Shown here one piece after another: positions 9,083 to 51,343 of a stretch of DNA of 64,000 bases. The position numbers were made by a program, and so were the translations under genes. The notes beneath the pieces were generated by a model that did no database searches, was not told where the DNA came from, and was given only the letters and a program-made list of their open reading frames with translations. This stretch comes from Ignavibacteria bacterium (lineage in GTDB: Bacteria; Bacteroidota; Ignavibacteria; Tepidaquicellales; OLB5): NCBI GenBank assembly GCA_039933555.1, contig JBDTNV010000001.1, forward strand, positions 9,819 through 73,818, in the 5' to 3' direction. Positions within the stretch are counted from its first letter, which is position 1. Every line of letters starts with the position of its first letter.

Positions 9083-10339
9083 ATGAAAAAACTCCTTCTA
9101 ATATTGCTCATTGTTCATTGCTCATTGACAATTGTAAAAAGTCAGTGGGTACAGCAAACTGTGCCTGTAAGTAAGCCAATTAAAGGTATTAAATTTATTG
9201 ATGCCAATATAGGATGGTCTTGTACAGATAAAGGCACAACCGGTCTTAGTTACGGATATATAATGTATACCTCTAATGGTGGAGCTAACTGGTCTATACA
9301 AGATTCATCTCTTAATACGGATTATAATGCATTGGCGGTAATAGACTATAATACAGTGTATGCAGGCGGCGATAGTGTTGGTTTTGGAAAGTTAGCTAAG
9401 ACCGTAAACGGGGGATTGAACTGGACATACCTGCAATTACCCAGCAATATGCTTATAGATGATATACAATTTTTAAATAAAGATAGCGGCTGGACATGTA
9501 TAGACCTTGTGGGACCGGATGTGCGCACCACGACCAATGGAGGCATTAACTGGATAGTAAGAACAAGCGGGATAGCATCGCAGACACAGCGGATATTTTA
9601 CCTCAATTACAATACAGGTTTTTGCGGTGCGAATACATTTTTATATAAGACTACAAATGCAGGCTTGAATTGGAATTTGTACTATAACCCAAGCGATCCG
9701 GTTAATTCTGTTTTCTTTTTGAATGAACTAACCGGTTGGGTAGGCATTACTAATAACAGGATAAAATATACTTCCAACTCTGGTTTAAACTGGACGGAAC
9801 AAACTATTTCCCCGCCTTCAGGTAATATATGGGAATTATATTTTATTAACAACAACACAGGATGGGCAGGCGTTAGCTTTGATTACATTTTTAAAACAAC
9901 AAATCATGGTTTAAACTGGGGTTATCAAAATGTTACAACAGGTTCAAGAGAATTCTGTTTTATTGATAGCTTACATGGATGGTGTGGATATTTAGGTATT
10001 GGTCTTGTTTCCAAAACAACAAATGGCGGCGGAATAATTACTTATAACGCAATACAGCAGATTGGGAATGAAATTCCGGTTCAATACATATTATATCAAA
10101 ACTATCCAAATCCATTTAATCCTGTTACAACAATTAAAATTGATGTCCCAAAGTCCTCACATATCAAATTGATAATTTTTGATATCTTAGGCAGAGAGTT
10201 ACATAAGGAAGAAGAATACTTGAGAACAGGAAGTTATGAATTTAAGTGGGATGCCTCCGGGTACTCTTCCGGGACATACTTTTATCAACTTATTACAGAA
10301 CAATATACTGAAACCAAAAAAATGCTGATGATTAAATAA
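9083..10339 (+). CDS. T9SS-secreted BNR/Ycf48-like beta-propeller protein (copy 2)
   Basis: Collinear paralog of 7471-8724 (roughly 55-65% aa identity by eye), with the same TTNGGxNW repeats and NYPNPFNP..KKMLMIK C-terminal domain. Confidence 0.85.
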   Translation: MKKLLLILLIVHCSLTIVKSQWVQQTVPVSKPIKGIKFIDANIGWSCTDKGTTGLSYGYIMYTSNGGANWSIQDSSLNTDYNALAVIDYNTVYAGGDSVGFGKLAKTVNGGLNWTYLQLPSNMLIDDIQFLNKDSGWTCIDLVGPDVRTTTNGGINWIVRTSGIASQTQRIFYLNYNTGFCGANTFLYKTTNAGLNWNLYYNPSDPVNSVFFLNELTGWVGITNNRIKYTSNSGLNWTEQTISPPSGNIWELYFINNNTGWAGVSFDYIFKTTNHGLNWGYQNVTTGSREFCFIDSLHGWCGYLGIGLVSKTTNGGGIITYNAIQQIGNEIPVQYILYQNYPNPFNPVTTIKIDVPKSSHIKLIIFDILGRELHKEEEYLRTGSYEFKWDASGYSSGTYFYQLITEQYTETKKMLMIK

Positions 10340-10357
10340 GAATTATTTAATCAGAAG

Positions 10358-10430
10358 TCCCGCTCGGCGGGAATGTTGATTAAGTAAAAATTATTGCTTT
10401 GGCAATAGTTCCTCTTAATAGAGGAAATTT
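10358..10430 (+). terminator. Cluster of three short hairpins after BNR copy 2; the last resembles a terminator
   Basis: TCCCGC-tcg-GCGGGA (10358-10372), TATTGC-tttg-GCAATA (10392-10407) and TTCCTCT-taat-AGAGGAA (10409-10426), followed by ATTTT. Confidence 0.4.
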
Positions 10431-13151: not shown

Positions 13152-13177
13152 AAAACCCGGCATAAACCGGGTTTTTT
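13152..13177. terminator. Bidirectional rho-independent terminator
   Basis: AAAACCCGG-cataaa-CCGGGTTTT hairpin flanked by an A-run and a T-run, between convergent genes 12504-13145 (+) and 13238-15172 (-). Confidence 0.8.
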
Positions 13178-13196
13178 GTTTAATTGTCTTTTATAT

Positions 13197-13237
13197 TATT
13201 TTACCAGCCTTAGAAACAAGGTTGTAAAATAGCTCCG
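13197..13237 (-). repeat. Short copy (C) of the conserved element found 3' of T9SS cargo genes
   Basis: Minus strand after the stop: hairpin AAAATAGC-gga-GCTATTTT overlapping the TAG, then ACAACCTTGTTTCTAAGGCTGGTAAAATA. This is near-identical to cores at 46325-46358 and 47345-47375. Confidence 0.6.
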
Positions 13238-15172
13238 CTATTTTACTAATATCATTTTCTTCACTTCTGAATAATCATTAGTAATCATCCTGTAGAAATA
13301 AACCCCTGAGGAATAGTTCTCTCCGTTAAAATCAACTTCATAACTGCCCGGGGAGAAGTTTTCATCCACAAGTGTTGTTACAATCCTGCCTGTTACATCA
13401 TATATAACAATTTTCACAAAATTATTCTTACCTGTTGAAGGCACGGAAAATTTTATTTTTGTCTTTGGATTAAACGGATTAGGATAATTTTGCAATAAGT
13501 TAAACTTTTCGGGTATTTCAGAAGATAATTGTTTTATTCCTATTACAAAGTTTATCAAGGGCAACTCTATGTACGATTTTGAATTATTATTTATGAGTAA
13601 TTTGTTTAGTCCAGCTTTAAGTGATGGCAGCATAAACGGGTTTGTACGCAGGAAAACATCAGTTGTATCATCATTAAGATCATACAATGGGACATTATCA
13701 AGATTGGTTAATTTAACCCTGATCTTATCTCCTGCCCTGAATACATGAGAGTATGACTGCCCGTTAACATATTTTTGTTTTACCTGGTTTGCGTTATAAT
13801 CCCTGTCAGTCCAGTTGATCCTTGTAACAAGCTTTTCACCACCGTTTGCTTTTACATCCCACACCTGCATATTATACTGGCACATTCCATTTGCCGTTGA
13901 TGAATAATACAGGTAAGCATATGGTGTCCCTGCCATAATTGCATCCTGCAACAAAGCTGGTGTATCAAAATAGATTTCATTTTTATGGAATTTAGCCTCA
14001 AAGAGTGGTCCGCGGAATTCAGTATTTACAAGGTACTCCATTGTTACGTTTGTATCAAGAATTTCATTATTGCAGCTCACGTCGGTCTGCGAGCCACCGT
14101 ACCCATATACCTGCAATTGGTTTGAGGGATGGAAATAAAGCTTTACGTTCTCAACACCCGTAGGCGGCCATGTTGGTGAGTAATACCTGTTCCAGGTCCA
14201 TTTGCTTTCGCTGACCGGGTAACGGCTTGCAGCATAGGTGAACTTCTGGTTAACATCCATAACATTGTTCTGAATTCCCTGAACATGATATTCAACCCAG
14301 TCTCTTAATACCTGTGTCTTGTAGTTTTCTTCTGACTGAATATAGTCACTGCCATGTCCATCCATTACACCGAAATACATTTTTAAATTATTGTAAGGAA
14401 GTATGTATGCGCTTCTTATCTCACCCAGTGTGTTAAAGAATTTATCCTGCCATGCATTTTCAACCAGAATGGGTATCTGGCAATTGTTAACAGTACTTAG
14501 GAAATCGCGGTTCTGCGGAAGGTAAAATGCCAGGCTATCCCATTTTTCCTTTGTGTTTGCATAAATCCACGGTTTAAAACGGCTTACAAGCGGGTTATAT
14601 CTGACGATGCTTGTATCGTAACCTGTTGACCACAGGAATGTCATTTTAATTCCGCCGTTCTCGATCCAGTTAGTGCCTTGTTCAGGTGATGCAAGATCAG
14701 TGATTATGGTTTTAACATTCAGTCCGCTGCAGACCGCCATAAAAGGTATTATGCCGCCTTGTGAACCGCCGTGTATGAATACTTTATTATCGTTTGTGTT
14801 TGCATCGGCTTTCATAAACAGGATGACCTCTTTTAAGTCATTGGCTTCTGTCATGCTGATAAAGTTCGAACGCCCTTCAGAAAGCCCCTGCCCGCGCATG
14901 CTGTAAACCAAAGAGTAATATCCGTTTGTCGCGTAATCTATAGCTTCAGGCATTTCAGTGAATTTATTTAAGCCGAAGCCGTGAGTTATCAGGGCGCATG
15001 GCCATCCGCCTGCAGGCGGCGAGCCTGCCGGAATGAATTTTGTGCAATCAAGCTTAATATTATCTGAAAGAGTAAGCATAAAATCAACTCTTGTATATGC
15101 AAAGCCGGGGGGTTTGGCACTAAGTGATGCTGATAAAAATATTATAGTAAGAAAAAGTAAAATGTATTTCAT
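13238..15172 (-). CDS. T9SS-secreted CocE/NonD (S15 X-Pro dipeptidyl-peptidase-like) alpha/beta hydrolase
   Basis: Signal peptide, HGFGLNK, MRGQGLSEG, nucleophile elbow HGGSQGG, and C-terminal NYPNPFNPKT..YFYRM..KKMILVK. Confidence 0.75.
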   Translation of the reverse strand: MKYILLFLTIIFLSASLSAKPPGFAYTRVDFMLTLSDNIKLDCTKFIPAGSPPAGGWPCALITHGFGLNKFTEMPEAIDYATNGYYSLVYSMRGQGLSEGRSNFISMTEANDLKEVILFMKADANTNDNKVFIHGGSQGGIIPFMAVCSGLNVKTIITDLASPEQGTNWIENGGIKMTFLWSTGYDTSIVRYNPLVSRFKPWIYANTKEKWDSLAFYLPQNRDFLSTVNNCQIPILVENAWQDKFFNTLGEIRSAYILPYNNLKMYFGVMDGHGSDYIQSEENYKTQVLRDWVEYHVQGIQNNVMDVNQKFTYAASRYPVSESKWTWNRYYSPTWPPTGVENVKLYFHPSNQLQVYGYGGSQTDVSCNNEILDTNVTMEYLVNTEFRGPLFEAKFHKNEIYFDTPALLQDAIMAGTPYAYLYYSSTANGMCQYNMQVWDVKANGGEKLVTRINWTDRDYNANQVKQKYVNGQSYSHVFRAGDKIRVKLTNLDNVPLYDLNDDTTDVFLRTNPFMLPSLKAGLNKLLINNNSKSYIELPLINFVIGIKQLSSEIPEKFNLLQNYPNPFNPKTKIKFSVPSTGKNNFVKIVIYDVTGRIVTTLVDENFSPGSYEVDFNGENYSSGVYFYRMITNDYSEVKKMILVK

Positions 15173-16432: not shown

Positions 16433-17869
16433 ATGAATTCGAAATTATTAGAGCTATACAATTGCTTAAGTTATAATGAAATCAAAAAAATGGGGTATTT
16501 TGTAAGATCTCCTTTCCATAACAAAAGCAAATTGATGATAAAGGTATATGTGTATATCAGAAGACAGAAAATGAATACTGTAGTCCAAATAGATGGAAAA
16601 GGTTTATATAGTTATTTATATCCAAAAGAAATTTACAATTATAGTAAGATCAGATTAATTATTTCAGACTTTGTGAAATTGATAGAAGAATTTTTAAAGT
16701 TGACAAACTATATGCAAAACAATATATACCAGAACTTAGATTTGCTTGAAGATTTGAGACAAAGAGGAGCTGATAAATGTTTTTTGATGCTTGCAGATAA
16801 ATTGCACAAAGAGATCAACAACAGAACTATTTTTCGAATTGAAGAATATTTTTTTTTAGCAAGATTGACTCCCTATTCAGTTATGTATCAAATAAATAAA
16901 ATGAAACAATTAGATATAAAACGATTTGAGAAATCTTCACACTATTATCAATTATTATTTTTACTTTCTAACATTCAAAATTACAATCTAAATAGAATTA
17001 GCTTTGCACCTTGGAATAAAGATTTAAAAGTAGAAGGATTCTTGATTGTTGAATGTATTAACCATATTTCAAAGAATGAACAGTATTTTCGTAATAGTCA
17101 CATTCTAGTTTACATCGAATATCTTATATGCAAAATGTTTGATGATTGTGAAAATTACTCTCTGCATTCTAAATTATTCAATATAGTGAAGGACAAATAC
17201 TCAGATTTAACGATGACATATCTTACACATATATTTTACTCATTTAACGCACAATATATAACTGCAACTAATAATTCATTTGATATTGGAATCCACAAAA
17301 AAAAATTCTACAATGTTGTCAATTTTTTTTTTGATAAAGGTTTTTTTAACTCTTATAAATTTATCCCACCAGAAATGTTTTTCAATGTAATAAATATAAG
17401 TTCGGATTTAAATCTGAGATTTGCAAAAAATTTCCTAGATTTATATCAAAGTAAGCTTGATAAAGAAGTAAAAAATGATATCCAATGCTTGTCGAAAACT
17501 AAAATCTTAATGATTGAAGGAAAATACACAAACGCTATTAATGTTTTAAATAAAATTGATATGGTTAATTATCAGGTATATTTAGTTTCCAGAACATATC
17601 TGGCAATGATATACTATAAAATTTCTGAATTAGAAACCTTGCTCTATTTAATAGATGCATCAAAACATTTTTTATATAGACACAAAGCAGAGTTAGGATC
17701 ACGCTATGATAGGTTTCTTAACTTTTATTTGTATTTGTTAAGATTAATTAGAGTAGGAAGCATTGACAAAAAGAAATTGACTCAGTATAAATGTGAAATA
17801 AAAAACATAAGTAATATTGTTGGCAAAGATTGGTTAATTACTGAAATTAATGAGTTAATGAAGAAATAA
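16433..17869 (+). CDS. P-family paralog P1: uncharacterised ~480-aa cytoplasmic helical/TPR-like repeat protein
   Basis: Collinear with 43257, 44713, 49892 and 61102(-). Degenerate N-terminal box (..YFVRSPFHNKSKL..), TPR-like pair (KTKILMIEGKYTNAINVLNKI) and terminal helix (KDWLITEINELMKK). No signal peptide or TM segment. Confidence 0.7.
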   Translation: MNSKLLELYNCLSYNEIKKMGYFVRSPFHNKSKLMIKVYVYIRRQKMNTVVQIDGKGLYSYLYPKEIYNYSKIRLIISDFVKLIEEFLKLTNYMQNNIYQNLDLLEDLRQRGADKCFLMLADKLHKEINNRTIFRIEEYFFLARLTPYSVMYQINKMKQLDIKRFEKSSHYYQLLFLLSNIQNYNLNRISFAPWNKDLKVEGFLIVECINHISKNEQYFRNSHILVYIEYLICKMFDDCENYSLHSKLFNIVKDKYSDLTMTYLTHIFYSFNAQYITATNNSFDIGIHKKKFYNVVNFFFDKGFFNSYKFIPPEMFFNVINISSDLNLRFAKNFLDLYQSKLDKEVKNDIQCLSKTKILMIEGKYTNAINVLNKIDMVNYQVYLVSRTYLAMIYYKISELETLLYLIDASKHFLYRHKAELGSRYDRFLNFYLYLLRLIRVGSIDKKKLTQYKCEIKNISNIVGKDWLITEINELMKK

Positions 17870-18894: not shown

Positions 18895-20666
18895 TAATAT
18901 TAAAAGACGCATACGTACTTACATTTAACAGGAATAACGATTTCGGAAGATATTCTATTCTGCTAAATGATAATAAAATAACAGATATGGCTGATGCAAC
19001 AGCCAAGGGAAATGCAAAGGTTGAAAATTGGATCGCGCAATACCATGGTACTGCCGAGATAATCGACTGCTCAAAGAAGATCATCATGCCTCCTTTGGTA
19101 AATTCCTGTTTGCGCTCCGAAGGCAGTCTTCTTCATTATCTTTTAAAACGCAGGCATTACGAAAAAGCTGAAGAAGACCTGTGTACTGATCTTATATTCA
19201 ATTACCTATACCAGGAGCTCTCAGGAGATACAATTCAGAATGACCTGATGAATATTTATGAATATTCATTTAACCGCTCGCTGAAATCAGGAGTGGCATA
19301 TTTGAACGAGGTCTCACTTCGCAAGGATACCAATCACCTTGTACCAATTACAAATGCAGTTAAAAAAACCGGGCAGAATATTTCTGTCTGCTACCCCATC
19401 AAACAGGATGCTAATACTATTCGCGATTACAAATACCTGAATCCTTCATTTTACGTTACCCAGGAAAATCTTTTAACAGTTTACGATATTTCAGGTATTA
19501 CGGAATTAAAGAGTATAAATTTAAGGGACCTGTACCTGGAAGTTGCTGTAAATAAAGATATTACAGAACAATTCAGGCAGACTTTTCATAAATCGGTGAT
19601 ATCATTATTCGATGAATACGGGTTGATAGATTCGCACACATCGCTTATCAATCCATTATACCTTGATTACAATGATCTGAAAATAATCAAAGATAAAAAG
19701 GCAAACATAATAATCTGTCCGCGCGATCTGAATTATTTTACTACACGTTATTTTCCCATCGATGATTATATAGGCCATGGCATCCAATTTTCAATCGGCA
19801 CCGGGTGGCTTGGCGAGGATATTCTGAAAGAAATGAGACTCTTCAGGAACAAATACAAAGATCTGAATCTTTCAAGTAGCCAGCTTCTTGATTCTGTCAC
19901 ACGCACTCCGCACTCAATATTTTTTGATGGAAATTCAGAGGGAGAAAACAGCTACAAAATAGATGTTAACAAACCCGCCACTTTCTGCTTTATTGATATA
20001 TCAGACCTTAGGTTCCAGTTTTTCCCGGAAGAATTATCATATTCAGCAGTTTGCGATTTTATTGTTGATAACCTTAGTTCTTACAACATAAGTGATGTAA
20101 TGATCGGGGGAGTATTCAAAATCAGGGATAATAAAATCCTGAATATAGAAGAAAAGGAGCTAGTAGAGAGAGTCAATGAAACCAGAGAGAATCTTTATAA
20201 GACAGGTAAGTATGAAGAGCTTAAAAAGAAGAAACAGGAACGGGAGTCTTCTGAAAAGCTGGATATGACAGGGAGAACTGATGACGAGATAAAGCTCTTT
20301 TCTGAAAAGCCGGAAGCTGAAGGGGAAAACGAAGATGATAAAGATGAGTTCAGGATAAAAACCAAAATTCCTGTGTTCAGGCCAAAGAAGATTCCGGGAC
20401 AGAGAAGTCTTTTTGAAGAGTTTGATCATGTCAGTATTGTCCAGTCGGATGATTATCAGCAGACACCAATGCTGAATCTCCTTGTAACAGATCCTGATTC
20501 CAGCAGAGTGGTTGAAGAAGAAATTGTACAGGTAAAGGCTGTTGATGAAACTATCATAAAGCGGCTGGGGAATGAGAGGAAATCTGAAAAACCGGTAATC
20601 CCTGTAAACGCTGAAAGTAAAGTAGAGCTTGCAAAAAATGTGAAGTTGAAATTTGGAGATGATTAA
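18891..20666 (+). CDS. Amidohydrolase-fold-like protein lacking the HxH motif, with a long charged C-terminal tail
   Basis: N-terminus (IILKDAYVLTF..ILLNDNKITDM..IIMPPLVNSCLRS) mimics metal-dependent amidohydrolases, but the HxH position reads SCLRS. The last ~165 aa are K/E/D-rich and low in complexity. The TTG start overlaps the upstream stop (TTGA). Confidence 0.5.
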   Translation: MIILKDAYVLTFNRNNDFGRYSILLNDNKITDMADATAKGNAKVENWIAQYHGTAEIIDCSKKIIMPPLVNSCLRSEGSLLHYLLKRRHYEKAEEDLCTDLIFNYLYQELSGDTIQNDLMNIYEYSFNRSLKSGVAYLNEVSLRKDTNHLVPITNAVKKTGQNISVCYPIKQDANTIRDYKYLNPSFYVTQENLLTVYDISGITELKSINLRDLYLEVAVNKDITEQFRQTFHKSVISLFDEYGLIDSHTSLINPLYLDYNDLKIIKDKKANIIICPRDLNYFTTRYFPIDDYIGHGIQFSIGTGWLGEDILKEMRLFRNKYKDLNLSSSQLLDSVTRTPHSIFFDGNSEGENSYKIDVNKPATFCFIDISDLRFQFFPEELSYSAVCDFIVDNLSSYNISDVMIGGVFKIRDNKILNIEEKELVERVNETRENLYKTGKYEELKKKKQERESSEKLDMTGRTDDEIKLFSEKPEAEGENEDDKDEFRIKTKIPVFRPKKIPGQRSLFEEFDHVSIVQSDDYQQTPMLNLLVTDPDSSRVVEEEIVQVKAVDETIIKRLGNERKSEKPVIPVNAESKVELAKNVKLKFGDD

Positions 20667-43256: not shown

Positions 43257-44711
43257 ATGATAAGTGCTACGCTTCTAGGAATGCTGGGCAAATTCACACC
43301 AAAAGAATTTAAAGATTTTGGTGAGTTTGTTAAATCTCCTTTTTTTAATAAAAATATCCATGTAAAGCAGCTTTACGATTATTTGAAAAAGTTTTACCCT
43401 GAATTCAATGATAAGAAACTTGACAAAGAAATTGTTTTTAAGAATCTATACGAAGCGAAAAAATACAATGACGGATTTTTACGGACTGTAATATATAATC
43501 TCGGTAAGCTAGCAGAAGATTACCTGGCTTACATTAACTTCAGAAAGGATGACCTGAACAGGGGAATAAGCCTTTTAAAAGAGCTGAATGAACGGAAGCT
43601 TGAAAAGGTATTCCTTAAATATTATTCTGAGATCGAAGAGGACATTAACTCATCGACCTACCAGGATAATGATTATTTTTTCAGAAAATTTGAGCTGCAG
43701 AACCAGAAAGAAGTTTATATGGACTGGAGCAAATTCAAACAAAAGGATTTCAAGAATTACACTACGAATACAATTTCATACATAAATGATGAGCTTACAA
43801 GCTACTATTTATCCAAAGCTCTTAACCATTACCGTTTTATGCTTGATAAAAATATGTATGAGCAGCTTGAATACAATTATGATTTCATTGAGCATATTAT
43901 GGAATTCCTGCTGAAAAAAGATAAATATTTCAGGGAAAAGATCAAGATCAAGCTTCATCTATACGAAGTACTGCTGATTAAAGATAAAAAACAGGAATAT
44001 TTTAAAATACTTAAGGATATTTTCATTAATGAAACAAAACAGCTTTCAAGAAGTGACCTCTACAGCCTGCATAATATTCTGCAGGGCTTTTGTGTTTACC
44101 AGAACTATAATGATAAGCCCGGGTATCTTGCTGAAAGATTTGAACTTTACCTCATTTGTATAAATGAAAAACTTTATTCAGCTACGGAACACATTTATTT
44201 TGATGACCTGATGTTTGGAAACATTGTTAATACAGGAGCGGCAGTTAAGGATTTTATTTGGACTGAAAAATTTATTGAAGAATTCAAAAATGCAATTTCT
44301 CCTGATAACGCAGATGTAGTTGTGAATTATGCTTATGCCAGGCTGGCGTTTGCGCAAAAAGAAAATGAAAAGGCGCTGTGGTATTTGAACAGTATAAAAA
44401 CCATAAAGCATATCCAGTATAAACTGCCTGTCAGAGATCTAACACTGATGTGTTATTATGAGCTTAATATGCTCAGCCAGTCATCATACCAGATAGATTC
44501 ATACAGGCATTTCTTAACAAACAACAAAAGCTCGCTTTCGGATATGCGATTTGATAGAATTATGAATTTTCTTAAATTCTATACTAAGCTTGTTAAGAAT
44601 AAAGAAAAGGGGAACTTAAAAGAATGCGTTAAGCTAAAAGAAGAACTTGAGGGTACAAATAACGTTATTGAAAAAAAATGGCTTTCCGAAAAGATAAAGG
44701 AGCTGGTATAA
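43257..44711 (+). CDS. P-family paralog P2
   Basis: N-terminal box KFTPKEFKDFGEFVKSPFFNKNIHVKQLYDYLKKFYPEF, central FGNIVNT / WTEKFIEEF, TPR-like NYAYARLAFAQKENEKALWYLNSI, and terminal KKWLSEKIKELV. Confidence 0.75.
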   Translation: MISATLLGMLGKFTPKEFKDFGEFVKSPFFNKNIHVKQLYDYLKKFYPEFNDKKLDKEIVFKNLYEAKKYNDGFLRTVIYNLGKLAEDYLAYINFRKDDLNRGISLLKELNERKLEKVFLKYYSEIEEDINSSTYQDNDYFFRKFELQNQKEVYMDWSKFKQKDFKNYTTNTISYINDELTSYYLSKALNHYRFMLDKNMYEQLEYNYDFIEHIMEFLLKKDKYFREKIKIKLHLYEVLLIKDKKQEYFKILKDIFINETKQLSRSDLYSLHNILQGFCVYQNYNDKPGYLAERFELYLICINEKLYSATEHIYFDDLMFGNIVNTGAAVKDFIWTEKFIEEFKNAISPDNADVVVNYAYARLAFAQKENEKALWYLNSIKTIKHIQYKLPVRDLTLMCYYELNMLSQSSYQIDSYRHFLTNNKSSLSDMRFDRIMNFLKFYTKLVKNKEKGNLKECVKLKEELEGTNNVIEKKWLSEKIKELV

Positions 44712-44712
44712 A

Positions 44713-46152
44713 GTGAACAAAAGCAGTCTTATAGAATCATTCAGAACATTTTCACAAAAAGAGATGAAGGAATTTTCTGAATTTGTTTCTTCCCCGTTTT
44801 TTAACAAGAATGTTAATGTTATCAGGCTTTTTGAACTTATCAGGAAAAATTATCCTGATTTTGAACCTTCAAAAATAGAAAAGGAAAAGGTATTTGCAAA
44901 ACTGTTCCCGGGGAAACCTTTTAAAGATAGTTCGCTTAGGCTCTTGATGTATTACCTGTATGAATTAGTTGAAAAATTTCTTTCATATAACAGATTTAAC
45001 AATAACAAATTCCGCCAGAAGGATAACCTTCTTGATGAGCTGTTTGAGAGAAAATTATTTAAAGATTTCGAAAAAACCATTGATGAAGCAAATAAAGAGC
45101 TTGATGAAATTGTTGCAAAGGATAGTAATTATTTCAGGAACAGGTATGTTTTTGCCGAGCACAGGCTGAACTATCTTGCTGAAATATACATGGGCAAGTA
45201 TGAAAAATATCTTACAAAAGAAAATATTCAGCTCTTTTCAGATAATATAACTTACTTTTACCTTATCAGCGTATTGAAATATTATGCTATTACGCTCAAC
45301 ACTATGTACCTGTACAACGTAAAGGTTGATACTGCAGTAATTGAAAATATTCTGAAAAATTTTAGTATAGAGCAGTTTTCAGGAGTGCCGCTTATTACTA
45401 TTTATTACAGGGTGATACTGCTTTTCCTAAATCCGGATGATGAGGAAAATTACTACAAGCTTAAAGAACTTATTATAAATCATGAACAAGAAATTGGCCA
45501 CACTTTGGGCGACCTGTACATCAACCTTGAAAATTACTGTGTAAGAAATGCAAGAAAAGGCAACCATAAGTTTCTTGAAGAATCGCTGAATATTTACGAA
45601 ATGGAGCTGAGGAAGGGTACTTATTACCAGAACGGGTTTATGCCGAACTCATTCTTTTCAAGTTTTGTAGTTACTGCAAGCCGGCTTAAGAAATTTGAGC
45701 GGTTAAGGAAATTTATAAATGACTATAAAGATGAGCTTCACGAAGATTCAAGAGAGGCTTATTATTTTTACAGTATGGCTTTTACTGAATATGAAGAAGG
45801 TAATTTCGAAAAAGCCCTGGAGTATCTTGCTAAGAGCAAACCTGAGGAAGTCTACATGAAGATGGACCTGCGGATATTGCAAAGCAGGATATACTACAGC
45901 TTAAACTGGAACATCCCGCTTCAGTCACTGCTTGATACTTTCAAGAAAACTGTTCAGAATAACAAGTATATTACTGATTTAAGGAAAGAACAGTATAATA
46001 AATTCATTAAATATACAAACCAGCTTAATAATATAAGATTTAAAAGCGATAAGGCCTCAGCAGATACAATGCTGGATGATCTGAAGAGAGGTGATTTTTT
46101 CACTTACAAATTGTGGGTAGAAGATGAAGCCCGAAAACTTGCTGAAATTTGA
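44713..46152 (+). CDS. P-family paralog P3
   Basis: GTG start 1 nt after the P2 stop; it is supported because the encoded N-terminus aligns with P2 and P4 (TFSQKEMKEFSEFVSSPFFNKNVNVIRLFELIRKNYPDF). TPR-like FYSMAFTEYEEGNFEKALEYLAKS. Confidence 0.75.
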   Translation: MNKSSLIESFRTFSQKEMKEFSEFVSSPFFNKNVNVIRLFELIRKNYPDFEPSKIEKEKVFAKLFPGKPFKDSSLRLLMYYLYELVEKFLSYNRFNNNKFRQKDNLLDELFERKLFKDFEKTIDEANKELDEIVAKDSNYFRNRYVFAEHRLNYLAEIYMGKYEKYLTKENIQLFSDNITYFYLISVLKYYAITLNTMYLYNVKVDTAVIENILKNFSIEQFSGVPLITIYYRVILLFLNPDDEENYYKLKELIINHEQEIGHTLGDLYINLENYCVRNARKGNHKFLEESLNIYEMELRKGTYYQNGFMPNSFFSSFVVTASRLKKFERLRKFINDYKDELHEDSREAYYFYSMAFTEYEEGNFEKALEYLAKSKPEEVYMKMDLRILQSRIYYSLNWNIPLQSLLDTFKKTVQNNKYITDLRKEQYNKFIKYTNQLNNIRFKSDKASADTMLDDLKRGDFFTYKLWVEDEARKLAEI

Positions 46153-46198
46153 AATCTGTTAAATTATGAGAAATTGAAATAAATAATTATGAGAGATC

Positions 46199-46362
46199 AA
46201 AAAAAATAACCCGTAAGCATGGGGGGCTCACAGGTTATCATTCAATTAACGCAATGCTTTAAAGAGAACCATGCTGGTCTGTTCAACCAGTCCTGGAACC
46301 GGATTTCTAAAGTAATTGCATTACTTTAGAAGCCTTAGTAACAAGGTTGTAAAATAGCTGCG
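46199..46362 (-). repeat. Copy A of the conserved structured 3'-UTR-like element (candidate 3'-derived sRNA/terminator module)
   Basis: Minus strand, 5' to 3': hairpin AAATAGC-gca-GCTATTT at a relic stop codon; core CCTTGTTACTAAGG; AT-rich spacer; terminal hairpin ATAACCTG..CGGGTTAT followed by T8. About 70% identical to 47262-47393, with one ~50-nt indel. Confidence 0.6.
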
Positions 46363-46380
46363 CTATTTCACAAACATTAT
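46363..46380 (-). pseudogene. Relic of the last six codons of a T9SS cargo gene
   Basis: Minus strand reads ATA ATG TTT GTG AAA TAG (IMFVK*), matching the ..KKM(I/M)L(V/I)K* ends of T9SS genes. A stop lies 4 codons upstream of this stretch, so the body of the gene is gone. Confidence 0.35.
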
Positions 46381-46444
46381 TCCCTGACGTCAGTAAAGCC
46401 TACTGTTTATCTTTTACAATATCTTAATTAATCTACAAATATTA

Positions 46445-46843
46445 TTATTTCTGCATCTCTTGTGCTGCCCAGGTTGAAATATCTGACATTCTTTTTGCCT
46501 GCTCGGTTGTCATTTTAGCTGATACCTGAGAAAGCTTTGTAGAAAAATCAGTAGACTTCTTTCCAAGCTCCTGGTACTTATCTGAAACACTCATATCTCC
46601 TTTTTTGAATTTCTTGGTAACTTCAACATATTCTTTCATTATCTTTTCATAATCGGTGATGAGTGCATCTATATCATTGCCGCTATCTGTCTTTGTATCA
46701 GTTTTTGTTTCAGTTTTCGTATCGGTCTTTGTATCAGTCTTTGTATCAGTCTTTGGATCATCCTTCTTGCCGCAACTGTTTAATGATAATGCTACGAAGA
46801 ATAAAGCTAAAAAAAGTACCGCTGTTTTGAGTGTGTTTTTCAT
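46445..46843 (-). CDS. Lipoprotein with (T-D/E-T-K) tandem repeats
   Basis: Lipobox LNSC, then KTDTKTDTKTDTKTETKTDTKTD, then a helical C-terminal domain. Confidence 0.6.
   Translation of the reverse strand: MKNTLKTAVLFLALFFVALSLNSCGKKDDPKTDTKTDTKTDTKTETKTDTKTDSGNDIDALITDYEKIMKEYVEVTKKFKKGDMSVSDKYQELGKKSTDFSTKLSQVSAKMTTEQAKRMSDISTWAAQEMQK
46687..46760. repeat. About six tandem copies of a 12-nt coding repeat
   Basis: GTCTTTGTATCA-like units (plus strand) encode the TDTK repeats of 46445-46843. Confidence 0.8.
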
Positions 46844-46944
46844 TGATCTGCCTCTTTTTTTTGATTTTTGGAATTTTTGTTTATTTATTTACTGCCGTAT
46901 TTCTGAATGAAAATGCTCTTTTCCTTTAGTTTGATTTCCATTTG

Positions 46945-46952
46945 CAAAGATA
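46945..46952 (-). promoter_or_regulatory. Putative -7 box (TATCTTTG) for 46445-46843
   Basis: Reverse complement matches TAnnTTTG. It marks the left edge of a ~245-nt stretch homologous to 49654-49891. Confidence 0.4.
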
Positions 46953-47157
46953 GATTTATTTAAGACTGTAAAAAAAGAATTTTTAAGGTCAATGTTTAAA
47001 AATGGAGTGTCTCTAAATATCATAAACTTAAGAATTTTTTCGTTTTTTTATCATTTTAACTGTTTACATCATTGCATTTTGTTAGAAGAAATTGCTCTTT
47101 GGAATTTATTTCCTGTTTGTTTTGAGAAAGCTGCATAACGCAAACCTCGGTATAGCT

Positions 47158-47262
47158 ATGTCCTATATTTTTATAAGACTTATAACTAAAACAATTGGCT
47201 TATATAATAGTTTTTTGAACAATATCCATCATAATGTTATAATGATATTAACTTTGCATCTT
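47158..47262 (+). pseudogene. Relic 5' end of a sixth P-family gene
   Basis: The upstream 245 nt are homologous to the P4 upstream region. The position aligned to the P4 ATG reads ATA (47182-47184). The downstream frame gives ..LYNSFLNNIHHNVIMIL, cf. FVKSPFFNKNIHVKQLYDYL in P2. Homology stops at repeat copy B. Confidence 0.35.
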
Positions 47263-47393
47263 AATTTAAATAACCCGCAAGTATTGGGACCCGCGGGTTA
47301 TAATTCAATTAAAGTAATGCATTACGGAGAACAATGCCGGTTTATTTTACCAGCCTTAGAAACAAGGCGGAAAATAATCCCGTGTACACGGAA
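47262..47393 (-). repeat. Copy B of the conserved structured 3'-UTR-like element
   Basis: Directly 3' of the stop of 47394-49196. Minus strand: CCGTGTACACGG palindrome, core GCCTTGTTTCTAAGGC, GCATT..AATGC hairpin, and a terminal 9-bp hairpin ATAACCCGC..GCGGGTTAT followed by TTTAAATT. Confidence 0.6.
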
Positions 47394-49196
47394 TTATTTA
47401 ACCAGCATCATTTTCTTGACATCGGTGAAACCTTCTGCCTCAATTTTATAGAAATACACACCTGATGATAATACAGAAGCGTTGAAATCCACTTTGTATG
47501 AACCTGCATTGTAATTTCCGTTTAAAAGCTCGGAGACCTGTTTGCCAAGCATATCATACACTACCAGTTTAACCATTCCTGTTTTAGGAATGCTGAAGTT
47601 TATTTTTGTTGAGGGGTTGAACGGATTCGGATAGTTCTGGCTTAATTCAAATTTGTCCGGTAAGATATTTCCGATTGGTTCAACAGCTGTTATAAGCTGC
47701 TCTGAATTGTAATATACATTTACAGGACCTGACCCCGGATAAGAAAATGCAGCATATTTTACAGTACCAACTTTGTAAATTGCTGTTGAAGGTGCAACGA
47801 GTCCTGAAGAGATGTTATTATTGCGTTTGTAGTAGCTGAAAGTTGTGCCCGGCGGAATTGTAAGCTGTTTTACATTTACAGAATCGCCGTCATCTGTTAC
47901 AAATCCCATAATTACATACTGGCCGCCGTTTGTTAATGAATCACTGTTGCATGTAGTAAAATCGGCGGTAACGGTGCTGCTTGTACCCATTAGCTGGTCT
48001 ACTGTCCATGTTTGGGCGCCATTGGTTGAATAGAAGAATCTGGGATTACGTGCCCTGGTGCATGTGATAAGCATTTTTCTTGGCAATGTATATTGCTGCT
48101 GAACTACAGTTAACTCAGGTTTTTCGTACTTAATTCCGGATGCAAATGCTACAAAGTATACAAAATGGCTTGGAGAAATAAATTCAGATGTTGCAATAAG
48201 CCTTAAGCCGTATTCAGTTCCCGAAAATCTTCTCTCAGTTGCAATGTAAATAGAATCTGTTCCTGTATTTTTTTCGCCGTACTGAATACTTGGATAAAAA
48301 TCATCCCAACCTGTATTTAATAACGCGCTTGTATGGCTCTCCGTCCATGTAGTGCTTAAGAAATGCCTTAAACCCACCTGAACACCCGCATTTGAAGCTT
48401 CTCTAACTACACAATGAAGATATGTTGCTGTACCCCAATACATTCCATCGCTGCATGTAGAAGGATATTCATACTTATTACCTGCTGCCGGAGTTGAAAC
48501 CAGATTGTAGTTCCAGTTAATTCCTGTGCGGTTAAATGTAACTGATTCAAGCCTTGCATCGTTGAAATTTGAAGTTAAGCTTGTTACATAGTACAATACG
48601 ATCTTTGTTGAATCACCAAAGTTAGTGTTACTCCTGTTTTCAACCAGCATAGAAACGCTCTGGATATACCTGGTACCCCAGTCAAGGCCCTGTACAAATG
48701 CCCATGTTGCGCCTCCATTGCTGGACCTGTAAACTACGAGGCTTCCTAATGTACCTGTTATCGGTCGTTTGTTTATAGCAACATACATCCATCCGTCTTC
48801 ACCCTGTTTGAGGTCAATTTGTCTGAATCCACCCACATATGCAATGTTGCCTGCGAATACTGTAACATCAGTGCCATACCAATCCGGATTGAAGGGTGGA
48901 TTGGTTGTATTATTTGGAACCGGCCTATCCCGTGATGCATCTGTTGAGTTTTCCTGAGGAATGTATTTTAATATTTCATTGCCGATCCTTTCCTTGGCAT
49001 CATTATCATGCTGTCTTTTAGCAGCTGCTAACTGCTCGAGAAGGTTTTGCGGTATTGCATTTCTATCCCCTTGAAACTGCTGGATCTCACCCGGCTGTCT
49101 TGACCAATCCCCGGGAACTTCCTGTGATTGTGATACTGATGAAATGACCAATAAGATCATTGCGTGAATTAAAAAAAGCGTTTTGAATTGTTTCAT
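47394..49196 (-). CDS. T9SS-secreted BNR/sialidase-like propeller protein
   Basis: Signal peptide, BNR-type motifs (SSNGGATW, STNGAQTW), and C-terminal NYPNPFNPSTKINF..YFYKI..KKMMLVK. Confidence 0.75.
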   Translation of the reverse strand: MKQFKTLFLIHAMILLVISSVSQSQEVPGDWSRQPGEIQQFQGDRNAIPQNLLEQLAAAKRQHDNDAKERIGNEILKYIPQENSTDASRDRPVPNNTTNPPFNPDWYGTDVTVFAGNIAYVGGFRQIDLKQGEDGWMYVAINKRPITGTLGSLVVYRSSNGGATWAFVQGLDWGTRYIQSVSMLVENRSNTNFGDSTKIVLYYVTSLTSNFNDARLESVTFNRTGINWNYNLVSTPAAGNKYEYPSTCSDGMYWGTATYLHCVVREASNAGVQVGLRHFLSTTWTESHTSALLNTGWDDFYPSIQYGEKNTGTDSIYIATERRFSGTEYGLRLIATSEFISPSHFVYFVAFASGIKYEKPELTVVQQQYTLPRKMLITCTRARNPRFFYSTNGAQTWTVDQLMGTSSTVTADFTTCNSDSLTNGGQYVIMGFVTDDGDSVNVKQLTIPPGTTFSYYKRNNNISSGLVAPSTAIYKVGTVKYAAFSYPGSGPVNVYYNSEQLITAVEPIGNILPDKFELSQNYPNPFNPSTKINFSIPKTGMVKLVVYDMLGKQVSELLNGNYNAGSYKVDFNASVLSSGVYFYKIEAEGFTDVKKMMLVK

Positions 49197-49320
49197 TTTG
49201 TTCTCCTGTTTGTTTTTTGATTTATTGTTTTTTGATTTATGCTGTTTAAACTTGTATTGTTGAATTACAAATATTTTAACCCTGGATATCTCTTGGACTG
49301 TTCATTGTATAATTATTTTT

Positions 49321-49632
49321 TTATGTTATTCTCTTTTTTATTGGTTCACTCCACGGCCCCTGTTTTTCAGAATTTACCGCGGCGACCCTAAATGAATATA
49401 TTTTGTTCGGTTTTAGACCCTTAATTGTATATTTTGATTCATTGGTAATATCTACTAAAATCCATTGTTGTTTTATGTTACCGTTACAGCATTCAATTAC
49501 ATATGAGTCAGCAGCTTCAATTCCATCCCAGTTCAGGTCCACTTCACCTTTTAAATCACCCTTTGCCGCGCTCATCGAAGAAATTGTCAGTCCATTCCCC
49601 GAACGATGCCGGGATTCCAATTTGTTTAACAT
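49321..49632 (-). CDS. Small fibronectin type III domain protein without a signal peptide
   Basis: LNWDGIEAADSYVIE...YTIKGLKPNKIYSFRVAAVN..GPWSEP is a typical FN3 pattern. ATG at 49632 is preferred over the listed TTG at 49656 because the -7 box lies at 49654-49661. Confidence 0.6.
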   Translation of the reverse strand: MLNKLESRHRSGNGLTISSMSAAKGDLKGEVDLNWDGIEAADSYVIECCNGNIKQQWILVDITNESKYTIKGLKPNKIYSFRVAAVNSEKQGPWSEPIKKRIT

Positions 49633-49653
49633 TTTTGTTTTAATTTTCACGTA

Positions 49654-49661
49654 CAAAGATA
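49654..49661 (-). promoter_or_regulatory. Putative -7 box (TATCTTTG) for the FN3 / 600-aa T9SS genes
   Basis: Reverse complement matches TAnnTTTG, 21 nt upstream of the ATG at 49632. Confidence 0.45.
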
Positions 49662-49856
49662 GATTTTGAAAGGGCTGTTTGAAAAGAATATTTGAGGGTA
49701 ATGTTTACGGTCTTAGTGTAAATAGATGCGGAAAATGTACAGTTATTTCTATTTTTTTATTATTTTTACCATTTTATTTCATTTCATTTGTTAGTAGATT
49801 TTAGACATTGGAATTTATATGAAGATTGTTTCTGAAAACCACATAACTAAATACGT

Positions 49857-49891: not shown

Positions 49892-51343
49892 ATGGTCGAA
49901 AGCACTCTGATTTTATTACTGAAAAAGTTCGATAAACAACAGTTAAAAGAATTTAATAACTTTGTTAAATCCCCATTCTTTAATACCAATAACGCGCTTG
50001 TTAAGTTATATGAATACATAAGAAAACAGCATCCTGAGTTCATTCCCGAAAAGCTAGAAAAAAAATATGTATACAAAAAACTATATGGAAAGACTGAATT
50101 TAACGACGGTTTTTTGAGAGTATTGATGTCTAATCTTCAGAGTTTGGCTGAAGAATACCTGATGCATAAAGCTTTTCAGCACGAGCCTCTGATAAAAAAG
50201 AAATACCTGCTTGATGAGTTAAGCTCAATGGGTGCGAGAAAACATGCGGAGAAAGTATTAAATGAGGGGTTAAAGGAATTGGCGAAAAGTACGCCAAAAA
50301 ACCCGGAAGATTATCTTGGAATGTATTACATGGCGTTCTACAAAAGGTATTTATACAGTACGCAGTTTATTGTAAGCAAAAACAATAAACCTGATGAGAG
50401 TCTTTATGAAGACCAGAAATATTTTAACATTCATTTTTTGTTAAGAACTTTAGCCAGTCATTTCTATCTCCTTAATCAAAAGCAGATAATTAACTATGAG
50501 CCCAGGCTGATTTTTCTGGATGAAATAACACTTTTTCTTGAGAGAAATCCTGAATACCTCGAAATTCCAATGCTAAATATTACATTTCTTAGGGTTCTGC
50601 TGCTTAAGAATAATGATATAAAAGATTATTACAGGCTTAAGAATGCTTTTTTCGGTACATTTGAAAAGCTTGATAATAAAGATGCATTCAATACAATTTC
50701 AATAATCATTAATTATTGCCAAAAAAATTATTCGGATACTGAAGATGAAATATTCCTGAAAGAAAAATTTGATATATTGAAATTTGCTGTTGAAAATAAC
50801 CTGAACACTTTTGAAAAGGCTGAAGGTTTTGAAGGAAGCAGGTTTAACAATATTGTAAATACCGCTTTGGAATTTAATGAGACCGGCTGGACGGAAGATT
50901 TTATCAGGCATTATGGAAAAGAACTTGAACCTGATAGAAGGGATTATCTGATAGCTTTTGCCAGTGCCTTGGTTCTTTCGGCGAAAAAAGAGAACGATGA
51001 AGCGTTAATACGCTTATCGAAGCTAAAAAACCCTTCTTCATCAACTGATAAATTTAATTTAAAGACGCTTCAGTTAAAGATTTATTATGAAAAGAATTAT
51101 ATTGACCAGGCCGAAAGTACCGCTGATTCATTCAGGCATATGATCCAAAATGATAATGTACTCCCTGAAGCTTACAGGGAATCATACAAGAATTTCTATT
51201 CAGTTTATGTTAAATTGCTAGCTTTAAAATTAAGAAATGATAAATCAGATGTAAGTGATTTCAGGGAAAAGCTGAATACGACAAAGAATATAATTAATAA
51301 AAAATGGTTGAACGAAAAGGTGAAAGAAATTGAAAATAAATAA
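49892..51343 (+). CDS. P-family paralog P4
   Basis: KKFDKQQLKEFNNFVKSPFFNTNNALVKLYEYIRKQHPEF, RFNNIVNT, WTEDFIRHY, TPR-like AFASALVLSAKKENDEALIRLSKL, and terminal KKWLNEKVKEIENK. Confidence 0.75.
   Translation: MVESTLILLLKKFDKQQLKEFNNFVKSPFFNTNNALVKLYEYIRKQHPEFIPEKLEKKYVYKKLYGKTEFNDGFLRVLMSNLQSLAEEYLMHKAFQHEPLIKKKYLLDELSSMGARKHAEKVLNEGLKELAKSTPKNPEDYLGMYYMAFYKRYLYSTQFIVSKNNKPDESLYEDQKYFNIHFLLRTLASHFYLLNQKQIINYEPRLIFLDEITLFLERNPEYLEIPMLNITFLRVLLLKNNDIKDYYRLKNAFFGTFEKLDNKDAFNTISIIINYCQKNYSDTEDEIFLKEKFDILKFAVENNLNTFEKAEGFEGSRFNNIVNTALEFNETGWTEDFIRHYGKELEPDRRDYLIAFASALVLSAKKENDEALIRLSKLKNPSSSTDKFNLKTLQLKIYYEKNYIDQAESTADSFRHMIQNDNVLPEAYRESYKNFYSVYVKLLALKLRNDKSDVSDFREKLNTTKNIINKKWLNEKVKEIENK

Follow-up and report, generated by a model that had tools for sequence, protein, structure and literature searches.

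Some T9SS cargo genes of uncultured Ignavibacteria end in a hairpin-forming unit of about 42 nt. It has not been described before and is related to the REP/BOX-type repeats of bacteria, but specific to one gene family. The reading toward which we lean, on balance and with some reserve, is that of a REP/BOX-like 3′-UTR hairpin repeat specific to T9SS gene ends, with a function inferred by analogy. The core of the unit, the 16-mer CCTTGTTWCTAAGGCT, lies at three minus-strand sites in the 64-kb window (the whole stretch of DNA that was analyzed), at 13206-13221 (copy C), 46331-46346 (copy A) and 47352-47367 (copy B). The shared three-copy core of the original prediction is borne out, with 3 occurrences against 0.09 expected and at least 3 in 0 of 100 shuffles. 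At up to two mismatches there was no fourth match in the window, and no complementary partner of the core elsewhere in the window. RNA folding gave z-scores relative to shuffled sequences of -5.7 for A, -6.2 for B and -3.95 for C, and the CCTT/AAGG hairpin, the extension of about 100 nt in A and B, and the terminal hairpins were each confirmed by sequence or folding. All three copies had been placed behind a T9SS stop codon, which holds for B and C, whose ORFs encode a Por_Secre_tail, but not for A, which follows only a CTD relic. The stop-overlapping hairpin predicted for A and C is present in both; B has one too, AAATAAT-[14]-ATTATTT, with the palindrome CCGTGTACACGG filling its loop.

The unit consists of a hairpin that includes the stop codon (H1), a second hairpin CCTTG-UUUC-UAAGG (H2), an E-box (CTGRTAAARTAA) and often a third hairpin (H3), and it can be repeated in tandem with a period of 42-43 nt. 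Its host genes encode type A T9SS C-terminal sorting domains (CTDs). H1 is A/U-rich and 7-13 bp long, and its 5′ arm is formed by the final codons and the stop of the gene (..AAA-UAR-C / G-YUA-UUU). The arm in copy C holds the last codons (V K) and the TAG stop at 13238-13240 of an S15-peptidase/T9SS gene (13238-15172, minus strand), and the arm in copy B is AAA plus the TAA stop at 47394-47396 of another T9SS gene (47394-49196, minus strand, hereafter gene B); both copies start directly at these stop codons. The E-box, CUGRUAAARUAA, is a copy of the T9SS gene-end sequence and often opens the H1-like hairpin H3. In copy C it is predicted to be able to pair with the 3′ arm of H1, which would give an alternative long helix enclosing H2. 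Over core and E-box, copies B and C are identical at 26 of 26 positions, whereas their CTD coding sequences are only 60% identical, and pairwise similarity stops sharply on the right at +11 to +13 nt, where the E-box ends. Terminators are located downstream of the unit, which, lying between stop codon and intrinsic terminator, would be co-transcribed with the gene. The coordinates of all features are collected in Table 1.

Table 1. Positions of the repeat unit, its parts and adjoining features in the window.
Feature	Position	Strand	Sequence or remark
Copy C, H1	13224..13246	-	GUAAAAUAGC-GGA-GCUAUUUUAC; sequence, fold, covariation across 15 copies
Copy C, H2 core	13208..13221	-	CCTTGTTTCTAAGG; 5-bp stem CCUUG/UAAGG, loop UUUC
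Copy C, E-box2	13196..13207	-	CTGGTAAAATAA; non-coding mimic of T9SS gene end (L-V-K-stop)
Intrinsic terminator 3′ of copy C	13152..13175	-	bidirectional; common to convergent gene 12504-13145
Type-2 variant	10324..10397	+	at end of T9SS gene 9083-10339; covariance-model score 23.8 bits
Copy B, H1	47372..47399	-	AAAUAAUUCCGUG-UA-CACGGGAUUAUUU; extended 13-bp hairpin, one U-G wobble
Copy B, H2 core	47354..47367	-	CCTTGTTTCTAAGG
Copy B, E-box2	47342..47353	-	CTGGTAAAATAA; 11/12 identical to real gene end CTGGTTAAATAA
Copy B, distal part	47263..47341	-	CCGGCATTGTTCTCC...TTAATTGAA..., final hairpin ATAACCCGCGGG...TGCGGGTTAT; outside repeat unit
Decayed T9SS CTD 3′-end remnant before copy A	46363..46420	-	sequence comparison with gene B
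Copy A, H1	46347..46373	-	UUGUGAAAUAGC-GCA-GCUAUUUUACAA; 12-bp hairpin around relic stop codon
Copy A, H2 core variant	46333..46346	-	CCTTGTTACTAAGG; loop changed
Copy A, E-box2 and H3	46304..46332	-	E-box2 CTTCTAAAGTAA; H3 UUCUAAAGUAAU-GCA-AUUACUUUAGAA, perfect 12 bp
Copy A, distal part	46199..46279	-	paralogous copy of gene-B-type 3′ UTR

The type-2 variant on the plus strand has an H1 that overlaps the stop (UGAUUAAAUAA-GAA-UUAUUUAAUCA), followed by a GC hairpin, UCCCGC-UCG-GCGGGA, that replaces the CCTTG core, and then by an E-box-like TTGATTAAGTAA. T9SS genes on the plus strand had been thought to lack the element. Strand is irrelevant: the plus-strand gene ending at 10339 carries this variant, and a minus-strand gene ending at 42481 goes without. 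Two other interpretations of the gene ends were discarded. A coding extension or readthrough product ending ...LRLIK-stop would require a conserved frame, and the frame is not conserved, the distance from the gene stop to the stop of E-box2 being 42 nt in eight of the 15 copies and 43, 44 or 52 nt in the others, with in-frame stops between the two in 4 of the 15. Nor is a stop-codon hairpin a general T9SS trait here, since a stem of at least 6 bp occurs at 2 of 7 T9SS ORFs and at 10 of 38 others, which is no enrichment.

What had been described as a single element of 130-170 nt is, by sequence comparison, two separate things: the proximal unit of about 42 nt and a distal part of about 90 nt. 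The latter occurs without H1 and H2 in the gene B orthologs at loci L025 and L027, and in A and B it is the ordinary 3′ UTR and terminator of the gene B family. A GC-rich hairpin, in which orthologs show compensatory changes, closes this 3′ UTR. The distal halves are exactly what ordinary intrinsic terminators and gene-specific 3′ UTRs look like; the proximal unit differs from these in lying upstream of the terminator, in its A/U-rich stems and in being common to unrelated genes.

Copy A is an orphan behind a decayed CTD remnant. The remnant (about 55 nt) matches the final 54 nt of gene B at 69% identity, has lost one nucleotide by deletion and sits 3′ of a DUF6591-like ORF of 132 aa (46445-46843). 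A strong intrinsic terminator, a 14-bp stem at 46205-46239 followed by T8, closes the copy. The C-to-T change in this terminal stem corresponds to U-G on the minus-strand transcript, as had been proposed; the pair in question (56-80) is CG in four sequences and UG in one. Tandem duplication of a "lipoprotein + T9SS" operon was considered as the origin of A and B and rejected: the 111-aa ORF upstream of B encodes an fn3 protein unrelated to the 132-aa ORF, and further evidence against it comes from a relative (L022), in which other genes occupy the site matching copy A.

At least six other species of Ignavibacteria have the unit behind T9SS CTD genes; in every case it is sense and precedes the terminator. 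An exact 22-nt pattern had 12 loci among 185,579 species genomes. Ten of these are in six Ignavibacteria MAGs, all of them sense and directly after the ...KKMxLxK-stop of a T9SS gene end; the remaining two, one in an Ancylomarina MAG and one in a Flavobacterium genome, fall within coding sequence and not at the end of a T9SS gene. Four further copies (L007b, L011a, L020 and L024) were found without the pattern. With the covariance model R1, run with filters off over about 292 kb, every match above 55 bits was at a T9SS gene end or relic. Each of the 15 bearer genes has a CTD-like tail, copy A having the relic only, and in the window genes B and C and the L020 and L024 bearers the C-terminal domain was identified as Por_Secre_tail (PF18962); the passenger domains are mostly unrelated. 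The exact pattern matches one to three times per MAG and three times in the window, numbers that come from incomplete MAGs and a strict pattern. This low apparent copy number counts against a REP-like reading, REP families comprising dozens to hundreds of members. Among roughly 30 T9SS gene ends sampled without bias, about three (~10%) had the unit. Metagenome contigs gave only four matches to the 22-nt pattern, all within coding sequence and none at T9SS gene ends, and viral contigs gave 0. Rfam 15 at gathering thresholds had no match in the whole window, and permissive searching of 46100-47500 returned chance-level hits only (E ≥ 0.47, far below gathering scores). The literature on T9SS, Ignavibacteria and 3′-end repeats yielded nothing relevant. 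Four paralogs of about 480 aa near the copies were examined for a link; they are conserved syntenic neighbors in relatives with and without the element, and their proximity is therefore probably coincidental.

Compensatory substitutions, which the original prediction had proposed to look for over more copies, are seen in H1 and H3. Across the 15 copies H1 is paired at 96.7%, and the observed score was reached by 0 of 500 shuffles. One pair (27-34) is A-U in 10 copies and G-C in five, with none broken, and tracks TAA versus TAG stops. H3 covaries as well (G-C in three, A-T in three, G-U in one). H2 has no covariation; the variants in A, L007b and L024 (CCTTGTTTTTTAAGG) alter the loop only, and the invariance is partly one of ascertainment because most copies came from a pattern that requires the core. 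Non-Watson-Crick pairs of H1 on the sense strand are G-U in 5 cases versus A-C in 2, both A-C cells being loop-closing or alignment cells, and the internal positions of the alternative helix have 10 G-U versus 0 A-C. This sense-strand bias toward G-U supports the idea of selection on the transcript. An RNA-level structure is favored by the compensatory changes, the sense-strand G-U pairs and the position before the terminator, but the CCTT/AAGG hairpin adds no covariation to the case. The long helix is the minimum-free-energy fold in 5 of the 15 copies and turns into the best fold in most of the rest once the stop region is masked. Its covariation is weak, 37 of 500 shuffles reaching the observed value, and the helix could be no more than a by-product of an E-box that arose as a direct repeat.

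The unit behaves as a repeat, and the original prediction was right to list a recombination-prone repeat among its alternatives. It is not a fixed attribute of given cargo genes: most orthologs lack it, including those at 77-88% identity, and a 97% ortholog pair (L020 and L028) differs by a clean 43-nt indel between 19-nt direct repeats, TTAAATAACGAAGTTATTT. Unit copy number is 0.5-2.6, the upper value coming from L007, where TRF reports a period of 42 and 2.6 copies. In L004 and L005, which are different genes of different species, a stretch of 54 nt beginning in the final codons and including the core is identical. Another short gene-end tandem duplication, a 14-nt unit repeated three times, was observed at L017. 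The patchy presence of the unit argues against an indispensable function for any single gene.

A REP/BOX-like hairpin repeat of T9SS gene ends would work at two levels. In the transcript the unit would form the first part of the 3′ UTR, before the intrinsic terminator. Two near-isoenergetic folds are predicted because the 3′ arm of H1 pairs either with the stop-codon region or with the E-box, and a terminating ribosome would force the long-helix fold. By analogy with REP elements, the stack of stem-loops beside the stop codon may protect the cargo mRNA from 3′ exonucleases, modulate translation termination, or both. In the DNA, both flanks of the unit resemble a T9SS gene end plus hairpin, so that recombination or slippage could copy the unit to other T9SS ends, expand it or delete it precisely. 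Such exchange between direct repeats would account for the gene-family specificity, the patchy distribution among orthologs and the variable copy number.

The same recombination could take place in a neutral or selfish, minisatellite-like palindromic DNA unit without RNA function, which spreads, and contracts again, through slippage and gene conversion on account of the match between its flanks and the conserved KKMxLIK-stop codons, the hairpins being by-products. The filled/empty polymorphism of 43 nt, the range of unit numbers, the patchiness among orthologs, the 54-nt blocks shared by unrelated genes and the existence of other gene-end tandem duplications such as that of L017 are all what such a unit would produce. 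We nevertheless hold it to be unlikely, since the asymmetry of G-U and A-C indicates selection on one strand, pairing in H1 and H3 is kept by compensatory changes, the core is kept between species despite adjacent coding sequence at about 60% identity, and all stems of the orphan copy A are intact beside a decayed CTD remnant. Strand-specific folding and structural rather than sequence conservation of H1 and H3 would suit single-stranded DNA equally to RNA, and the unit might then be a recombination or transposition site, its hairpin read by an HUH transposase (RAYT or IS200-IS605-type) or a tyrosine recombinase, comparable to REP-RAYT pairs or to an integron attC starting at the stop codon of a cassette ORF. 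Strict orientation relative to the target, the attC-like position at the stop codon and the unit-sized insertions and deletions agree with this. It is nonetheless very improbable: no transposase, RAYT or integrase Pfam family occurs in the called genes (about 10 kb per copy) or the scanned window ORFs, the GTAG/CGTC tag is absent (features according to PMC3733652), TAG-type H1 has no AAC/GTT triplets, and the flanking duplication of 19-24 nt lies within the unit, unlike a target-site duplication.

Other alternatives give the RNA a more active part. The unit may be a translation-sensing switch, in which termination within H1 flips the RNA to or from the long helix and gates the access of an RNase or protein to H2 or to the AU-rich E-box, and which would tie the fate of cargo mRNA to translation or secretion load. 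In its favor, H1 invariably has the stop codon in its 5′ arm, covarying with the bases opposite; two mutually exclusive folds are predicted in most copies; both helices have sense-specific wobbles; H2 has one and the same sequence in at least six other species, whereas loops and spacers have diverged; and the tie to one secretion pathway is strict. Set against this are the presence of the unit in only about a tenth of T9SS genes sampled without bias, its lack in close orthologs, the weak covariation of the long helix, the fact that alternative pairing is automatic for a tandem repeat of a palindrome, and the fact that no candidate trans-acting factor was identified; we regard such a switch as rather improbable. 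Yet more doubtful is its extension to a portable, bistable 3′-UTR switch dedicated to T9SS cargo mRNAs, with the stop locked in H1 and termination freeing the 3′ arm for the E-box. If true, the presentation of H2 and E-box to an RNase or RNA-binding protein would shift, mRNA lifetime or termination efficiency would report translation or secretion load, and the cassette would move among cargo genes by carrying its own copy of a gene end. We give hardly any credence to a discrete 3′-UTR-derived sRNA of about 130-170 nt that would be released from the cargo mRNA by processing and act in trans. A and B do fold into compact multi-hairpin structures ending in strong hairpins, with a T8 run behind that of A, and an endonuclease could plausibly cut in the AU-rich E-box between hairpins. 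The long form, though, is a two-part composite, whose distal part belongs to a single gene family and is also seen where the core is missing; copy C and most other-species copies have unrelated downstream sequence, and the window offers no target complementarity.

Ignavibacteria are common in reactors and sediments, and to our knowledge almost nothing is known of their post-transcriptional control or of the regulation of the very large T9SS cargo repertoires of the Bacteroidota-Chlorobiota-Ignavibacteriota. The unit is a concrete case of a non-coding module that gains gene-family specificity from the conserved last codons of a domain, and R1 provides a defined RNA motif for the annotation of Ignavibacteria MAGs. 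Should the unit affect mRNA stability or termination, it would become a candidate for regulating secreted-enzyme output in cis; should it be no more than a repeat, it would still be of use for tracing recombination between the ends of CTD genes.

Several known systems resemble the unit in part. Integron attC sites are imperfect palindromes at or over the stop of the preceding ORF, conserved in structure more than in sequence and with strand-specific folding. The unit shares the start at a stop codon, the retention of structure over sequence and the strand-specific folding signal, but it is only about 42 nt, has a sequence-invariant middle hairpin and belongs to no cassette array. The attC cores R''(RYYYAAC)...R'(GTTRRRY) are not found, TAG-type copies reading AAATAGC...GCTATTT without AAC/GTT; no integrase was found near any locus, and the bearer genes are scattered. 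It is not a MITE either: the inverted repeat, formed by E-box2 and the 3′ arm of H1, lies inside the unit, and the flanking direct repeat of 12-24 nt is part of the unit and imperfect even in the young insertion of L020, unlike a target-site duplication. BOX elements of Streptococcus pneumoniae, boxA-boxB(n)-boxC, are modular, hairpin-forming intergenic repeats in which one module is tandem-variable. Here too modules combine, type-1 CCTTG and type-2 TCCCG hairpins being separated by E-box hairpins. There is no sequence similarity, the phylum is another, and BOX is tied neither to one gene family nor to stop codons.

REPs located less than about 15 nt from a stop codon reportedly stall terminating ribosomes and lower expression, as described by Liang, Rudd and Deutscher in Mol Cell in 2015. 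Such stalling would be a close functional analogue of H1. REPs are short imperfect palindromes, mostly just 3′ of coding regions, that are transcribed and thought to form RNA hairpins; they have a GTAG or CGTC tag, often occur as oppositely oriented pairs and show an association with RAYT transposases (PMC3733652). Degradation of REP-containing mRNAs requires RNase R and PNPase (PMC12320835). The alignment of 15 copies contains no unpaired GTAG/CGTC tag, and RAYT or transposase Pfam families were not among the called genes of the fetched loci, with about 10 kb seen around each copy. Like the REPs and BIMEs of Enterobacteria, Pseudomonas and others, the unit occurs in modular clusters of variable unit number and is patchy among related genomes. 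In size (20-40 bp for a REP palindrome outside genes, mostly 3′ of ORFs) it compares well, H1 spanning 17-28 nt and the long helix about 46 nt, and all copies are 3′ of ORFs, but the 5′ arm of H1 overlaps the final codons. REPs belong to no single gene family and have a high copy number, whereas the unit has an apparently low copy number, keeps to one gene family and is always sense. Unlike a REP, it encloses the stop codon in its first stem and ends in a mimic of the host gene's own end, an unusual design for a hairpin repeat tied to one protein-sorting domain.

The three minus-strand copies A, B and C are present in the window as the original prediction described them, and the 16-mer CCTTGTTWCTAAGGCT has three matches there, with no others when up to two mismatches are allowed (chance expectation, 0.09). 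All three fold far better than shuffled sequence (z-scores of -5.7, -6.2 and -3.95 for A, B and C), and the element region has no match in Rfam. The claim that each copy follows a T9SS (type IX secretion) stop codon holds for B and C, which start at the stop codons of genes B and C; both genes have a Por_Secre_tail domain at the C-terminal end and are unrelated outside it, B having no known passenger domain and C being an S15 peptidase. It does not hold for A, which is preceded by a ~55-nt decayed fragment of a T9SS C-terminal domain (CTD), itself behind a DUF6591-like ORF, with no intact T9SS gene there. The stop-overlapping hairpin ascribed to A and C is also found in B, where a perfect 12-nt palindrome inserted in the loop lengthens it from 7 to 13 bp. 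Plus-strand T9SS genes were described as lacking the element, but strand is irrelevant; in the window one minus-strand T9SS gene lacks it and one plus-strand T9SS gene carries a variant.

Coordinates of the features in the window and anatomy of the repeat unit
Feature	Position	Strand	Description
Copy A	46199-46362	minus	sequence as predicted
Copy B	47262-47393	minus	sequence as predicted
Copy C	13197-13237	minus	sequence as predicted
Gene B	47394-49196 (open frame 47394-49301)	minus
Gene C	13238-15172	minus
fn3 ORF	49321-49656	minus	111 aa
Palindrome CCGTGTACACGG	47380-47391	minus	in H1 loop of copy B
ACCTTGTTAC	46337-46348	minus	in copy A
Tandem T9SS paralogs	7396-8724; 9083-10339
Duplicated block segments	8865-8995 and 10565-10695; 7524-8059 and 9136-9674		families D1, D5, D8, D9, D18
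~480-aa paralogs	16433-17869; 43257-44711; 44713-46152; 49892-51343	plus	family D7
12-nt tandem repeat	46672-46767	minus	family D4
74-nt direct repeat	46925-46998; 49634-49707		family D12
H1			5' arm, last codons and stop codon of the gene; AAAUAR-C / G-YUAUUU
Spacer			A-rich, 3-6 nt, between H1 and H2
H2			CCUUG-UUUC-UAAGG
E-box			CUGRUAAARUAA; reproduces T9SS gene end
H3			third, H1-like hairpin, begun by the E-box in seven copies

What is repeated is a unit of ~42 nt. A scan with the pattern CCTTGTTNCTAAGGCTNNTAAA over one genome per prokaryotic species returned 12 loci, 10 of them in six Ignavibacteria MAGs; all 10 directly follow a ...KKMxLxK-stop gene end, are oriented in sense and precede an intrinsic terminator, and the remaining two matches fall within coding sequence of other phyla. 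Metagenome and viral collections gave no additional copies. Further copies, independent of the pattern, are a tandem second unit in locus L007, a second gene in L011, and copies in L020 and L024. A covariance model from 15 copies, applied with filters disabled to ~292 kb that comprised the window and related loci, matched strongly solely at T9SS gene ends; its antisense matches were weaker and fell at the same places, because the unit is pseudo-symmetric. The passenger domains of the genes followed by a unit are mostly unrelated to each other.

H1 is paired at 96.7% and covaries with the stop codon, TAA occurring with U and TAG with C (A-U, n = 10; G-C, n = 5; broken, n = 0), a covariation score reached by no shuffle. 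The H1-like H3 also covaries (G-C, n = 3; A-U, n = 3; G-U, n = 1), so that compensatory substitutions are found across more copies in both hairpins. H2 varies only in its loop and covariation is therefore uninformative on it, its apparent invariance being in part an effect of how copies were found. In a predicted alternative fold, the 3' arm of H1 and the E-box form a long helix around H2; this helix is paired at 89.7% and covaries weakly. Five of the 15 copies have it as their minimum-free-energy fold, and masking of the stop region makes it the best fold for most of the remaining copies. Pairs that depart from Watson-Crick are overwhelmingly G-U as read on the sense strand: five G-U against two A-C in H1, both A-C being loop-closing or alignment cells, and, among the internal pairs of the long helix, 10 against none. 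Of the evidence for selection on the transcript, or failing that on the sense strand alone, this asymmetry is the best.

The single long element originally seen in A and B is composite. The ~90 nt that they share past the E-box, from CCGGCATTGTTCTCC through TTAATTGAA to the TAACCCGCGGG hairpin, recur in two gene B orthologs that lack H1 and H2, L025 (73% amino-acid identity) and L027 (65%). They are the 3' UTR and terminator that belong to the gene B family, and the terminator stem shows ordinary compensatory changes. Copy A is thus a mosaic: its proximal unit is nearest to C (85% identity over 62 nt; repeat family D17), its E-box and H3 are similar to L010, and its distal part resembles the gene B family. 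Copy A also contains ACCTTGTTAC, which shares 10 nt with the universal 16S primer 1492R and would therefore complement 16S rRNA around nt 1495-1504. Typical unit copies match just 8 of the 10 nt, and the resemblance is probably chance.

The suggestion that the element might be a recombination-prone repeat is borne out by an indel, tandem units and patchy presence among orthologs. The unit is absent from gene C orthologs at 88%, 80% and 78% identity and from gene B orthologs at 79% and 77%; one gene B ortholog, at 73%, does carry it, in a form whose loop is variant and to which extra modules are added. The plainest example is a 330-aa T9SS gene that bears the unit in L020; relative to it, the 97%-identical ortholog in L028/L029 shows a clean 43-nt indel, which is bordered by the direct repeat TTAAATAACGAAGTTATTT and leaves a single H1. 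L007 carries 2.6 tandem units with a period of 42, and a 54-nt block that extends from the last codons through the core is identical in L004 and L005, which represent different genes of different species. Pairwise similarity breaks off abruptly where the E-box ends; between B and C the adjacent CTD coding sequence is ~60% identical and core plus E-box agree at 26 of 26 positions. A second module type keeps the frame with another stem (GAAA-UCCCG-loop-CGGGA-CUGAUAAAAUAA), singly or joined with the first. In this clade, T9SS gene ends seem to undergo short duplications commonly: in L017, a gene end at ~20430-20507 (minus strand) is followed by three tandem 14-nt units CAAATAACAAAAAG, with the stop codon within the first, and the gene end AAATAGCGA, at 15495, has a second copy 15 nt downstream.

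The neighbourhood holds other repeats. Tandem T9SS paralogs lie within a ~1.6-1.7-kb duplicated block of 70-87% identity, in which a 131-nt stretch, where downstream small ORFs start, is 99% identical; this looks like recent gene conversion. Two of four uncharacterised ~480-aa paralogs (common N-terminal motif ..F.EFV.SPFFN.., no significant Pfam match) form a tandem pair that converges on copy A; these neighbours are kept in relatives with and without the repeat alike. The 132-aa DUF6591-like ORF contains ~6 copies of a 12-nt repeat encoding (K-T-D-T)n, and its L022 ortholog has a similar one. A 74-nt direct repeat (73% identity) sits upstream of this ORF and of the fn3 ORF preceding gene B. 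The Bacteroidota-type -7 promoter motif is TAnnTTTG; the repeat contains the similar TCTATCTTTGCAAA and is probably a promoter or 5' leader common to the two ORFs. The fn3 ORF ends 20 nt ahead of the gene B open frame, the pair is kept in all relatives examined, and the two likely form an operon.

The observations agree with a small hairpin repeat that resembles REP/BIME or BOX elements and is specialised to one gene family. Both flanks replicate the conserved end of a T9SS gene, so units could be inserted, amplified or deleted by recombination or slippage between gene ends. A functionless DNA repeat is disfavoured by the strand asymmetry of G-U and A-C pairs and by the intact stems of the orphan copy A. 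The unit might instead be a single-stranded DNA site for a recombinase, but no such enzyme was seen among the called genes of the fetched loci or the scanned window ORFs. A coding extension is excluded, since the stop-to-stop distance varies (42, 43, 44 or 52 nt).

At the RNA level, a candidate 3'-UTR-derived sRNA is disfavoured by the composite nature of the long form. A putative translation-sensing switch would be more novel than a cis-acting stem-loop module and is less likely. We favour a transcribed, cis-acting 3'-UTR stem-loop module, because the stems are kept on the sense strand alone, where they would form part of the cargo mRNA 3' UTR, and because of the REP/BOX-like fit. For REPs, ribosome stalling is reported to have been described by Liang et al. 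in 2015. By analogy with REP elements, the stem-loops may act as an exonuclease barrier or as structure near the termination site (PMC3733652, PMC12320835). The unit is real, conserved and unusually designed; it is also patchy and probably dispensable for single genes. Our searches found neither relevant literature linking T9SS, Ignavibacteria and 3'-end repeats nor an Rfam family. The unit shares with known systems the character of a small palindromic 3' repeat, and differs from them in its gene-family specificity, the stop codon within a stem, the mimicry of the gene end and the two-fold architecture.
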